DNA from: Nitrosopumilus sp. | GTDB taxonomy: Archaea; Thermoproteota; Nitrososphaeria; Nitrososphaerales; Nitrosopumilaceae | DNA: 64,000 nt | NCBI GenBank assembly: GCA_965207445.1 | Contig: CBDBLX010000002.1 | Location: 2,359,849 to 2,423,848, forward strand | Direction of reading: 5' to 3' | Shown: positions 13,759-18,172 of the stretch, piece after piece | Numbering within the stretch: the first letter of the stretch is position 1 | Layout: every line of letters begins with the position of its first letter | Notes under the pieces: model-generated | Seen by the model: only the letters and a program-made list of their open reading frames with translations | The model's database searches: none | What the model was told of the DNA's origin: nothing | Translations under genes and position numbers: made by a program

Positions 13759-13833
13759 GGGCCCATAGCTCAGCATGGATAGAGTGTTGGACTTCTAATC
13801 CAATGGTCAAGGGATCGAAGCCCTTTGGGCCCG
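13759..13833 (+). tRNA. tRNA-Arg(TCT); integration target of the island
   Basis: Cloverleaf: acceptor GGGCCCA/TGGGCCC, anticodon arm ttgga-cttctaa-tccaa, T arm aaggg-atcgaag-ccctt; no encoded CCA. Confidence 0.95.
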
Positions 13834-13842
13834 CTCTAACAG
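13821..13842 (+). repeat. att core 1 (tRNA-Arg 3' end) CCCTTTGGGCCCGCTCTAACAG
   Basis: Identical 22-mer at 17424 and 25201. Confidence 0.9.
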
Positions 13843-13965
13843 CTGGTTCAGGCCCTCTTTTTTGCAATACGACCTTGCCGTTTGGCAGCACGCAAGCAAA
13901 CACCCATGCACCAGATACGATTAGGTGTTCTGCAGTGTCCGCGTCAACGACTGTCTGTCTCTTTA

Positions 13966-14512
13966 TTATGCCAGTATCGCAGCCTGTCCCTATATGTTGC
14001 CGGCGCGTCTTAGCGCCTCTAGCACCAGGTCAAGCTGCTCTGACGTTGCGTTCTGTATGATGTCGTGTAGTTCCTGTTTTTGGTCTACGGACTGCTGCAG
14101 ATTTGCATGCATGGTTGCTGCGCCATCCTCCAGATCCAAAAATTCTTCTGATCTGGCAAAGGCGTCACGCATCTCTCGTGTGAGCATTTCAGGCAGCATT
14201 CCCTTGTTTGTCGTGTATCGCGCCTCCATTGAGCCCTTGTGGCCCATGAAGAAGACACGAAAGTCGTGTGCAATTTTACCTCGTCATAGATTCTGGATCA
14301 AATACAAGCAAGTATAACATGAAGAAGACACGAAAGTCGTGTGCAATTTTACCTTTGGACTCTGCAATGAGCAGTTGCGTATCAAAGTAGGCGCGTAGTA
14401 TGTATGGTCTCCATGCAAACCTGGGGCGGAACGTCTTGCGAATCTCCTTGCTGATCTGCGGCGTGGACACGAATGTCTTGAGTGCCCTCTTGCCGCTGTC
14501 CTGTGGATGCTT
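13966..14512 (-). pseudogene. Tyrosine integrase C-terminal remnant 1 (nonsense codon, 73-bp insertion, truncated by IS630-type element)
   Basis: RPYILRAYF...FFMGHKGSMEARY catalytic R/H/Y region, adjacent to the att core. Confidence 0.85.
14245..14354. repeat. 37-bp direct repeat flanking a unique 36-bp insert (CRISPR-like repeat-spacer-repeat)
   Basis: catgaagaagacacgaaagtcgtgtgcaattttacct at 14245-14281 and 14318-14354; insert at 14282-14317. Confidence 0.9.
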
Positions 14513-16179
14513 AGTGATTTCATTAAAGATCCGATAGTTTTTGCAGGCGATTTCGGCTAGGCAGACGGGTACGGAGTGGAAAAATAGACATAATTGGCAC
14601 TATGTGTAGCAGATACCGTGTGGTGTCCAGAAGAGAGGTGAGAAATTGGTGTGTATGTCCAGTGGCAGGTATTAAGTAACTTTTGATCATTTGGTTTAAC
14701 TAATTTGACCTCGAGTGTCAAAAGGTGATGTGGCCATTAGTGTTTAATGAATACCCACAAAATGGTACATCGACTAGTATTCGCCGATGCCATATTTAAC
14801 GACTCTGCAGGCAGATCGTCTTGCGGCATCGACGAGGTGCGTATTTTTTGAAGACAGCCCATGTAGAAAGAGGGACGGGTTCATGCCCGACGTGTCCCTG
14901 GAAGATCTAAAAGCCGCCTACCGCAAAGAGCCTCCGGGCAAGTCCCGGGACAGACTGCAAGCTGCAGTTGGGCGAAAAAAGGGCAAGAGTGAGTCTGTAA
15001 TAGCCGCCCAGCTCGGACGCAGCCAGAGCGTCATATCCGAGTGGCTCAACATGCTACAATCAGAGGGCCTGGAGGGCAGGTATGACCGCAAGAGCCCTGG
15101 CAGGCCGTGCAGACTCACAAAAGAACAACAAGAACAGGCAAAGTCCAATTTGAGTAGTGAGTCGATGCAAAGTGGCTTTGAGCGTGGGACATGGACTGCC
15201 GCCTTGTTTGCATTGCATCGGGTAAACATTTTTGACGTCCAGTACACGTGGACCGGAGCCCTGGCGCTAGCTCACAGGATGGGCTTTTCAATAAGAATAC
15301 CCACAGGCCAATCCACCACAAGTCAGCCAGTCCATTAGAAGAACTGCATTATGTACACAACACAATACGCGACATCATGGCGCACGCCCGCGCCGGCTAT
15401 GAGGTGTTCTGTATGGACGCCTCTGCAATCACAAACTCGCCGTATGTCGCGCGCGGACTACATCTCCGAGGAGGCTCTGAGACTGTAAATGTCAACTTTT
15501 CAAAAACGCGCATGAAAATGCTGGGTGCACTCGGGGCCGGTACATGCCACCTGCACTTTTGCGACAGTGCAAATACTGTAAACGTCATAAAACTGTTGGA
15601 GGTGCTCCGAGAAAAGTACGGCAAGGTATTTGTCATATGTGACAATGCGTCTGCGCACAAGTCCAAAGACATCAAACAGTATCTGGAACAGACAAGGGGC
15701 CAAGTCGCACTATGGTACTTGCCGCCATACACTCCTCAGCACAATCCCATAGAGATCCAATGGCGCGAGATAAAGCGCGCATTGGTAGGCAGATACTACA
15801 AGGGTGGTTTTCCAGAGATTCAAAAGTCCATACTACACATGATGGAAAAAGGCGAGGTGGGTACAGTCAGGCTACTAGAGTACATGCGCAATGCCATACA
15901 AGACGCAAAGAACAACGCGCCAATACCAGAACTCCGGGCTGCATGAACTGCATATTACGCGAACTAGGTGGTCCGGGCGAGGCTGTGCGACGCACAGATC
16001 GTACTATGATCAGGACGGCTGCGCACATACCCTTTGCCACGTCGAAATACATGGCTAGCATGCACATGTCCATGGGAAAATCATGGAGCATGTCTGGATT
16101 ACAACATGGGGCCTGCCTGATTTCCCAATATATGATTATAAGAATGTCTAAAAACTATCGGATCTTTAATGAAACCACT
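14513..16179 (+). mobile_element. IS630-type element, copy 1; transposase 14883-15946 frameshifted near 15300
   Basis: TIR agtgatttcattaaagatccgatagttttt / aaaaactatcggatctttaatgaaaccact; HTH domain plus DNASAH and LPPYTPQHNPIE DDE motifs; 2-bp insertion relative to copy 2. Confidence 0.9.
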
Positions 16180-16410
16180 AAACATTCGGTTTTGATCGGT
16201 CTCACTCTAGCTGGGTCCCCACCATATCTCTGGCCTAACATAAACCATTCCAAGTGGACGTGTGCCACAAAGACATGAGTTAACAACACACCAAATCCAT
16301 GCTTAAAGTGACTTAACATTCACAGAATTTGTGCCTGCGAGGTCAATCGACATGAAAATGAACATATTATGCTCAAAAATCCATATATAGTACCGTGTCG
16401 TACTATACTT

Positions 16411-16466
16411 ACGGTCCTGTGTTTTGTATAGAACACGCCGGATACATTGTATCCAAGGGACCGCCA
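16411..16466 (+). ncRNA. Candidate DUF3800-associated structured RNA 1 (three-way junction), antisense to the gene
   Basis: P1 cggtcc/ggaccg, P2 gtgtttt/agaacac, P3 ggatac/gtatcc; TATA-like atatata at 16383; ends CCA followed by a T tract. Confidence 0.7.
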
Positions 16467-16469
16467 CTT

Positions 16470-17213
16470 TTACAATGAGCAGCTCCCACGCTTGAACACG
16501 TTGGGATGATCTAAGTTGTAGTACTTGTGAGATATGGACTTCCACCGGTCCTGCTTTTTACCTTGCGTCCTTGCCCTTATCAAGACAGAGTACGCAAAAA
16601 AATCACTGAGTTGGAGTATGGGTGCTTCTGCAACTCTTGCAAAGTGTATCCTTTCTTCAATGTTTGAAAACTTGACAGTCTGTGGGAGACTGGGTATCTT
16701 GAACAGCTGCCCATAGTTGGTCTGCATGTATCTGTTTATCTGTCGTGTCACATACTCGTGAATAATTTTTCCCGTGCTCTTTTGATCAAGCAAAAAGTAC
16801 TGAAATCGTTCTGTCAGAAATGAAAGAGACAGGGTCCTCTGCGGTACTTTGCAAAGATAGTCTTTGTATACATAGTCCATGTCTATGATGCAGGAAATAA
16901 GGTGGCAGTCAGAACTTGCAATTATGTCAAACATTTGGTTTGCAATGGCATATCTGGTGCCTCTATCTAGGGTATCGTATGGAGGTAGGGTCTCACTGCG
17001 CAGGCCGTGGTAGGACAGCTTGAATGTATCTGGTAGATCGGATCTTGCAAAATGCTCTTCAATTATTCCTTTAATTTTTTTCTCAAGTATTGGTATCTGG
17101 CCTACCTCTACGATCACACCTCCCAGCACGAAATACCGGTGTTCCATGTCTGGATGTGCATTGGGGTGGTAGTTCTGCACATGGCCGCTCTCATCTACGT
17201 AAAGGTTGTACAT
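16470..17213 (-). CDS. DUF3800-family protein (RNase H-like), apparently intact
   Basis: N-terminal LYVDESG, FVLGG, ERFQYFL and C-terminal LQLSDFFAY, matching the family DESG...QxxD signature. Confidence 0.8.
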   Translation of the reverse strand: MYNLYVDESGHVQNYHPNAHPDMEHRYFVLGGVIVEVGQIPILEKKIKGIIEEHFARSDLPDTFKLSYHGLRSETLPPYDTLDRGTRYAIANQMFDIIASSDCHLISCIIDMDYVYKDYLCKVPQRTLSLSFLTERFQYFLLDQKSTGKIIHEYVTRQINRYMQTNYGQLFKIPSLPQTVKFSNIEERIHFARVAEAPILQLSDFFAYSVLIRARTQGKKQDRWKSISHKYYNLDHPNVFKRGSCSL

Positions 17214-17329
17214 TTTTTATCTCAGCATAGAATTTAATTAAGTCTTTAAATACATGACGGAGTCCGGCGCCGATCGTGCCTTGCAAACTTCTTACTTTGA
17301 CTGCCAGTCACATCCTCTTGTAAACATAA

Positions 17330-17445
17330 ATTGAAAATGAGTAAAAATGTAGGAGGGGTATTGTAAGCGTCCCGGTTCGCTTTCTGCCGTCGTTACGGGC
17401 CCGCTCCCACAGCTGTGTCGGTACCCTTTGGGCCCGCTCTAACAG
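17330..17445 (+). repeat. Element-end arm plus att core 2 (core at 17424-17445)
   Basis: About 115 bp nearly identical to 25101-25222; the sequence downstream duplicates the region after 13842. Confidence 0.88.
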
Positions 17446-17516
17446 CTGGTTCGGACCCTCTTTTTTGCAATACGACCTTGCCGTTTGGCAGCACGCCAGC
17501 AAACACCCATATGCAT

Positions 17517-17624
17517 ACTGATATGATTAAAGATCCGATATTTTGATTGATGTTCATCTCGAAGTTGAGTACATATTATGAATACAAAATATTAGAAAAC
17601 TATCGGATCTTTAATGAAACTATT
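17517..17624 (-). mobile_element. MITE-A (108 bp) sharing TIRs with the IS630-type element; TSD ATGCAT/ATGCAC
   Basis: attaaagatccgata TIR core; absent from the paralogous site near 13905. Confidence 0.88.
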
Positions 17625-17684
17625 ATGCACCAGATACGATTAGGTGTTCTGCCGTGTCCGCGTCAACGACTGTCTATCTCTTTA

Positions 17685-18044
17685 TTATGCCAGTATCGCA
17701 GCCTGTCCCTGTATGTTGCCGGCGCGTCTTAGCGCCTCTAGCACCAGGTCAAGCTGCTCTGACGTTGCGTTCTGTATCATATCGTGCAGTTTCTGCTTTT
17801 GATTTATTGATTGTTGCAAGCCTGCGTGTATGGTTGCGCCATCTGCCTCCAAATCCAGAAACTCTTCTGATCTGGCAAAGGCTTCACGCATCTCTCGGGT
17901 GAGCATCTCAGGCAGCATTCCTTTGTTTGTCATGTATCGTGCTTCCATGGATCCCTTGTGTCCCATAAAGAAAACACGAAAGTCATGTGCAATCTTGCCC
18001 TTTGATTCTGCTATGAGCAGCTGCGTATCAAAATAGGCTCGCAG
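17685..18044 (-). pseudogene. Tyrosine integrase C-terminal remnant 2
   Basis: YLRAYFDTQ...MGHKGSMEARY; paralog of 13966-14512, cut by a MITE-E end. Confidence 0.85.
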
Positions 18045-18172
18045 GTAACTATTTTGCTTTTTGAAGCGCACACACATAAGGTAAAAAATTATGCTCATTT
18101 TTCTGATCATGACGATCTCGGCATTGTATGCTCATATATAATCAATTGGCAATAATAACGCGTAGATGATTA
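18045..18172 (+). mobile_element. Left-end remnant of MITE-E
   Basis: gtaactattttgctttttgaag... homologous to 40240-40365. Confidence 0.7.

Follow-up and report, generated by a model that had tools for sequence, protein, structure and literature searches.

A spacer-sized insert between two copies of an integrase segment in a Nitrosopumilus genome, probably left by off-target integration by the host type I-G Cas4/1-Cas2

What process can copy a piece of coding sequence exactly and lodge between the two copies a short piece of DNA that belongs to neither side? The question is raised by a scar in the window (i.e., the whole 64,000-bp stretch of Nitrosopumilus sp. DNA that was analyzed), in which positions 14245–14281 and 14318–14354 form a direct repeat with 37/37 identical bases (CATGAAG...TTACCT) around a 36-bp insert (14282–14317, plus strand) unrelated to either flank. 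Both the perfect 37-bp duplication around a unique 36-bp insert and the palindrome inside the repeat (ACACGA-AAG-TCGTGT, a hairpin with a 6-bp stem and a 3-nt loop) had been described in an earlier note on this DNA, and the sequence comparison found them exactly so. Across the 2.6-Mb assembly, the 37-mer has just these two occurrences, the full insert is confined to the scar, and an exact 37-mer repeated 73 bp away is not attributable to chance. The two copies of the duplicated target (hereafter pseudo-repeats) are 100% identical and are given without strand; in translation, the left copy encodes GKIAHDFRVFFM on the minus strand, with an HxxR box. Note that the T at 14281 is ambiguous, because the same base also precedes the source of the insert, so that a 36-bp duplication around a 37-bp insert is an equally possible reading of the scar.

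The insert has a source in the host genome. The search of that genome proposed in the earlier note placed it at 1108489–1108524 of contig C2, with 35/36 identical bases (36/37 with the ambiguous T), on the same strand and 1.27 Mb off, the only mismatch being a G/A difference at insert position 27. This donor is part of an intact ORF of 1087 aa, whose product has SBP_bac_5 and ANF_receptor domains, and since the donor flanks show no duplication, the copying direction was from donor to scar. An origin in adjacent DNA consequently fails, and slippage or tandem duplication was rejected because the 36 bp between the copies come from 1.27 Mb away. The insertion of an IS or transposon was rejected as well, given an insert of 36 bp whose full copy is found only at the scar and a duplication of 36–37 bp; no terminal inverted repeats were seen in the 36-bp insert.

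The homologs of the locus keep the site without the lesion. A paralogous integrase remnant of the same window (17697–18068, minus strand) holds, at 17964–18000, one undisrupted copy of the target with 84% identity and without insert, and the target site is likewise uninterrupted in the paralogs at C2:643k and C2:898k and in a relative from the same genus (G214). In alignment, the window paralog (17914–18051), the C2:898k paralog and the G214 homolog all lack exactly 73 bases of the scar locus. BLAST of the scar locus yields two pieces that overlap by 33–37 nt on every homolog, and such an overlap is the signature of a duplicated target. The reconstructed empty site is spanned by three other loci of the genome (3/3 paralogs) and by the one relative, which bears out the derived duplication claimed earlier: on these alignments, the scar is the derived state and the empty site is ancestral. 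As for an assembly or sequencing artefact, its probability appears negligible. In 4/4 short-read runs (one study and two samples, possibly the assembly's own source and so not independent), a 96-nt contig covers 14252–14347, i.e., both junctions from the first pseudo-repeat through the insert into the second, with 0 differences. Equal depth of insert and flanks (19.3 vs 19.2/19.5, 55 vs 52/55, 65 vs 64.7/65.1 and 4 vs 9/4.3) is the sole argument against a rare empty allele, as the 37-bp duplication exceeds the contig word length. The donor locus is represented by a separate short-read contig, and no joint is listed at the scar in the four runs. Moreover, there are dozens of like events in the genome, some of them common to two copies of a region (on contigs C1 and C2) at 98–99% identity.

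The interrupted gene is a remnant of a tyrosine-recombinase-like ‘site-specific integrase’ (13978–14512, minus strand), which matches in tblastn residues 259–411 of a full-length 426-aa paralog (P0004, at L017:853–2133, C-terminus GHKGSMEARY). The scar duplicates residues 311–323 and shifts the frame, and in translation it adds 12 codons and then a stop (product ...HDFRVFFM-LYLLVFDPESMT-R-stop). The suggestion that the scar knocked out the integrase could not be upheld, since an IS630-like insertion sequence (14507–16185, plus strand, with HTH and DDE_3 ORFs in Pfam) also truncates this copy by removing its N-terminal 258 codons, and either lesion may have come first. This element ends in 36-bp terminal inverted repeats (14507–14542 and 16150–16185), and its near-full copies number more than 10 genome-wide. 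More than 50 loci outside the window hold the element or its terminal repeat (24–36 bp, TTCATTAAAGATCCGATAGTTTTT), which also stands alone at dozens of sites. The integrase label relies on the names of homologs, on motifs and on the position next to tRNA-Arg(TCT) (13759–13834, plus strand), the integration target of the decayed element; the 3′ end of this tRNA and the downstream DNA (13821–13907) are repeated at 17424–17510 as an 87-bp att-like sequence with 97% identity. Sequence searches with the P0004 family gave no Pfam, PHROG or PDB match; P0004 has 1840 homologs at E ≤ 1e-5, which carry, where NCBI gives any name, that of ‘site-specific integrase’. Together they make up a large thaumarchaeal family of ~430 aa with R...HxxR...Y motifs, invisible to these searches. 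In addition, the region 13759–18110 consists of two decayed integrated elements in tandem at tRNA-Arg(TCT), each of which has retained the C-terminal part of an integrase gene along with an att-like repeat of the tRNA 3′ end, and a DUF3800 gene (16470–17213) lies between them.

The host also carries a CRISPR-Cas system whose dimensions are those of the scar. Cas1 has a single match in the genome (C2:80241–81080, ~2.3 Mb from the window), and the earlier statement that the window holds no cas genes stands for Cas1, the gene that was checked. This Cas1 makes up the C-terminal half of a Cas4-Cas1 fusion protein of 565 aa (PF01867, E 3e-91; PF01930, E 3e-16), and a Cas2 gene (PF09827, E 1e-16) follows it; both are open reading frames above the Pfam cut-offs, and the adaptation module is apparently intact. 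The genes for GSU0053, GSU0054 and a Cas3-like helicase, which form a type I-G (formerly I-U) set, are followed directly by the first part of the CRISPR array. The array counts 122 repeats of 36 nt, which start in sense orientation with ATTTCC and end with ATTGAAG(G/C), and is split into 83 and 39 repeats by an IS66-family element (C2:74632–76825). Its 120 spacers measure 35 (10 spacers), 36 (36), 37 (52), 38 (19) or 39 nt (3), so that the unit period is 71–75 with a mode of 73 (52/120), while the period of the scar is 73. The comparison of the scar with cas genes and arrays suggested in the earlier note thus came out in favor of its reading, and the agreement reaches the modal array geometry (36 + 37) because the T at 14281 can be assigned to the insert. 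A casposon was rejected as the source, since the single Cas1 match is the Cas4/1 fusion and no second, casposase-type copy was found in the genome. Note that contig C1 (121 kb) is a collinear second copy of C2:1–120000 (98–99% identical), representing either a variant strain or a duplicated segment; it has ~70 bp in place of the 20.8-kb CRISPR-cas locus (C2:61088–81863). Of two scars compared between these copies, that at C2:27186 is common to both and the site of that at C2:111042 is empty in C1, which suggests that the C2:111042 scar arose more recently than the 1–2% divergence of the two copies.

At the scale of the genome, the scar belongs to a class. An exact-seed scan for isolated two-copy direct repeats (14-mer seed, span of at least 22, periods 40–140, arrays excluded) returned 93 repeats, 37 of which have periods of 69–76 (binomial p = 2e-17); the other 56 are thinly spread, and 48 of these 56 periods are multiples of three. 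With a more sensitive scan (at least 29/34 identical, periods 50–100), 56/79 isolated events fell at 69–76 (binomial p = 9e-28). Removal by eye of 11 cases (low-complexity or tandem) and of 3 duplicates left a curated set of 55 scars, whose periods (69–76) peak at 72–73. Copies of the same IS or gene with the empty site exist for 9/33 retained events (11/37 candidates), with up to 27 copies; several scars sit in an IS that retains the empty site in its remaining copies. Duplication lengths cluster at 36–37 bp, shorter ones resulting from mismatches near their ends and longer ones from chance identity between insert end and flank, and in scars with known donor the ambiguous bases belong to the insert. 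The mean unit length is 71.85 bp for scars and 72.74 bp for the array, a difference of 0.9 bp (Mann-Whitney p = 5e-6), and the shorter part appears to be the insert and not the duplication where donors are known. Host-derived inserts were found in 6/55 curated scars (the window scar and those at 293216, 1629809, 521111, 1959914 and 2066147) compared to 0/120 array spacers (Fisher p = 8e-4), which fits inert scars, since self-spacers in the array would be autoimmune and lethal. No source was found in the genome for the other 49/55 inserts, and scar inserts and array spacers have no spacer in common. Examples of the class are located at C2:111042, 120263, 120384, 293216, 543089, 567055, 1099770, 1593464, 1708312, 1805712 and 2066147 and at C1:41141, and two pairs of scars are 121 and 197 bp apart. 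A MITE-like family of ~72 bp (containing ...CTCAAATTTAGGCACAAATTCACCGCCTAACGTCTGGCGCA) was also noticed, with at least 31 copies genome-wide (e.g., at C2:55916–56060, 1463830, 1135870, 1629850 and 1808860). Such copies contain or immediately adjoin four or five scars, and the family may be a hot spot for scars.

We consider that the scar very probably results from one off-target spacer integration by the host type I-G Cas4/Cas1-Cas2, as the earlier note had proposed for Cas1-Cas2, and we infer that Cas4/1-Cas2 was the catalyst. The geometry, the distant donor, the Cas genes and the derived state all point this way, and it is the best reading because of the scar class itself (~55 across the genome, with 56/79 two-copy repeats at 69–76). 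Cas4/1-Cas2 would have (i) captured a 36–37-bp fragment of the host chromosome from the solute-binding/receptor gene 1.27 Mb away and (ii) attacked the two strands of a non-CRISPR site ~36 bp apart, as it does at both borders of a true repeat, after which (iii) gap filling would have left a copy of the 36–37 bp that separate the nicks at each end of the fragment. A very improbable alternative is the repair of a break with filler DNA, in which template switching would have copied the distant 36 bp and then re-copied the local 37 bp. It accommodates an insert templated from the host chromosome and the one base of junction homology (the T), but it gives no reason for a 36–37-bp duplication together with a 36–37-bp filler, ~55 times and at periods of 69–76; it also sits badly with the inserts that lack a source in the genome, and the broad length spectrum of duplication-plus-filler events was found in neither scan.

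Off-target integration by Cas4/1-Cas2 leaves the choice of the site to be considered, and here two properties assigned to the target by the earlier note did not generalize. Compared in register with the real repeat, the window target has 17/36 identical positions, including an ACAC-AAAGT core, a level reached by 3.7% of random sites and hence no significant likeness. Across 33 scars the mean identity to the repeat is 13.5 vs 13.4 in 5000 controls, and repeat likeness was rejected as the determinant of the site; note that repeat or leader likeness has been reported for some off-target sites but is not strictly required. No leader-like motif was seen at the scars by eye. Hairpins with a stem of at least 5 occur at 24% of scar sites vs 16% (p = 0.18; MFE p = 0.08), and the palindrome was therefore rejected as a determinant too, the enrichment not being significant. 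Junction logos are weak (at most 0.37 bit), and the biases observed at junctions and insert ends (A favored at +1 and +6, T disfavored at −2, a CT insert start slightly commoner) are not safe after multiple testing. As for the donor, it is flanked by CAT (or TCA) and, at its opposite end, by ATA, without TTN, which may not be the PAM of this system; TTN stands beside the donor for 1/6 host-derived inserts, in one orientation. According to excerpts of one study (PMC6547450), TTN is the only PAM known for type I-G. The array spacers gave no independent protospacers: the 120 spacers have 0 significant matches in their own genome, the 39-repeat part matched only related arrays (and no spacer) in 200 family genomes and gave only weak matches in five picked genomes, both array parts had no match among INPHARED phages, and the newest spacer had no exact match in viral or metagenome contigs.

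The resemblance of the unit to a minimal array raises the further possibility that it works as one, i.e., as a one-spacer neo-CRISPR array transcribed and processed into crRNA. The 6-bp hairpin of the pseudo-repeat and its core shared in register with the real repeat would speak for it. However, the pseudo-repeat, which is made of integrase coding sequence, has no counterpart of the 3′ handle (ATTGAAG) found in the real repeat, the unit has a single spacer, and a crRNA from it would target a gene of the host itself. Moreover, none of the genome's scars seen among the scan candidates has acquired a second spacer, and no three-copy case at ~72-bp spacing was seen there. A working array is thus extremely unlikely, and the scar is best seen as a neutral lesion within a decaying, IS-truncated integrase.

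Would the same lesions arise without Cas proteins? An integrase or repair process with a ~36-bp stagger and ~36-bp fragments could in principle produce them, the match to the CRISPR unit being then a coincidence or the result of shared enzyme ancestry. In its favor, a complete same-genus genome (G202, 2.2 Mb), in which no Cas1, no GSU0053 and no similar array were found, has 12/41 isolated events at periods of 69–76, ~5 of which look like genuine scars of the same geometry, one of them an exact 36-bp duplication at a period of 73. Scars of the 36 + 37 geometry are located in this genome at L114:1143–1251, L039:6319, L116:17518 and L122:13870, among others. The lack of a visible PAM and of repeat or leader likeness at the targets would also be explained. 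Against it, the scar density is 4–10 times higher in the two Cas4/1-positive genomes, namely 21.7/Mb in the genome studied here and 12.5/Mb in the first 400 kb of a second one (G248), compared to 5.4/Mb raw and ~2.3/Mb plausible in the Cas1-less relative. Furthermore, the scar periods (69–76, peak 72–73) track those of the array (71–75, mode 73), and the genome has a single Cas1 without any casposase-type copy. We know of no Cas-independent pathway that makes such lesions. A loss of the CRISPR-cas locus in the Cas1-less relative is plausible, because Cas1 was found in only 14/41 genus genomes searched and the C1 copy lacks the 20.8-kb region; its scars are presumably relics of a lost system, whose past possession is assumed. 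This relative is consequently not a clean negative control, and a Cas-independent mechanism keeps a slim chance for that reason, although we hold it to be quite improbable.

Off-target integration by Cas4/1-Cas2 being preferred, the scar is a clean natural case with donor and acceptor in the same chromosome, and one of ~55. Sets of such scars make several properties readable from sequence (a ~36-bp integrase ruler, a very weak target preference and the sampling of self-DNA) and quantify what a CRISPR adaptation module costs the genome that carries it. In annotation, lesions of 71–74 bp explain puzzling frameshifts and in-frame insertions of 24 codons. More tentatively, and as a possibility we favor less than its opposite, the scars may form an unselected fossil record of the fragments that a type I-G integrase takes up in nature and of the places where it puts them. 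If so, host DNA would be taken routinely without PAM (6/55 scars, 0/120 array spacers), as fragments ~1 bp shorter than array spacers that land almost anywhere in the chromosome, often enough to weigh on sponge-type thaumarchaea as a real mutational burden. Such a burden could in turn explain why CRISPR-cas is patchy (Cas1 in 14/41 genus genomes, the locus deleted in C1) and why the Cas1-less relative nevertheless has a few scars.

Among known systems, casposons are kilobase elements with a Cas1-family integrase, terminal inverted repeats and target duplications of 14–15 bp, and they occur in Thaumarchaeota. The scar shares with them a target-site duplication, here too probably by a Cas1-family integrase, but it has a 36-bp unique insert, and the genome has only the CRISPR Cas1. 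The resident module resembles the type I-G systems of Geobacter sulfurreducens and Methanosarcina barkeri, which likewise combine a Cas4-Cas1 fusion and Cas2 with ~36-bp spacers (in excerpts of PMC6547450 and PMC10504553). As an example, the spacers acquired by the G. sulfurreducens I-U Cas4/1-Cas2 are mainly 36 bp long (same excerpts of PMC6547450), and the ends of the array repeat studied here resemble the M. barkeri type I-G repeat, as given by search strings quoted in PMC10504553. The passages cited from these two studies concern the leader-repeat junction and a TTN PAM, whereas the present scar lies at a non-CRISPR site and its donor lacks TTN; the PMC10504553 passages also report that the type I-G complex chose the correct spacer-side site in vitro in only 60–70% of events. 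Another archaeal integrase, Pyrococcus furiosus Cas1-Cas2, performs full-site integration into non-CRISPR (plasmid) DNA in vitro, as would have happened here; however, its off-target sites share features of the repeat, according to PMC6698737, and the 33 scars compared here have no excess of repeat similarity. The nearest precedent for the scar is the off-target integration by the E. coli type I-E system described by Nivala, Shipman & Church (2018, Nat Microbiol 3:310), as cited in 10.1101/148544, PMC7054753, PMC6698737 and PMC11788318. The frequency of natural off-target integration is called unclear in 10.1101/148544, which mentions ‘circumstantial evidence in two other species’, and a literature search of limited scope found no description of natural scars genome-wide. 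As portrayed in those citing passages, the E. coli neo-CRISPR units resemble the present scar, with a spacer-sized fragment outside the array and a repeat-length target duplication. There, the dependence on Cas1-Cas2 was established by experiment, whereas here we infer it; the E. coli case involved over-produced Cas1-Cas2, supplied oligonucleotides, a bacterium and a 28-bp repeat, whereas the scar in the window is natural, has a 36-bp stagger and belongs to an archaeon whose Cas4/1 fusion is of type I-G. In contrast to the E. coli case, the host donor locus of this scar is identifiable, and it stands among ~55 scars in one genome.
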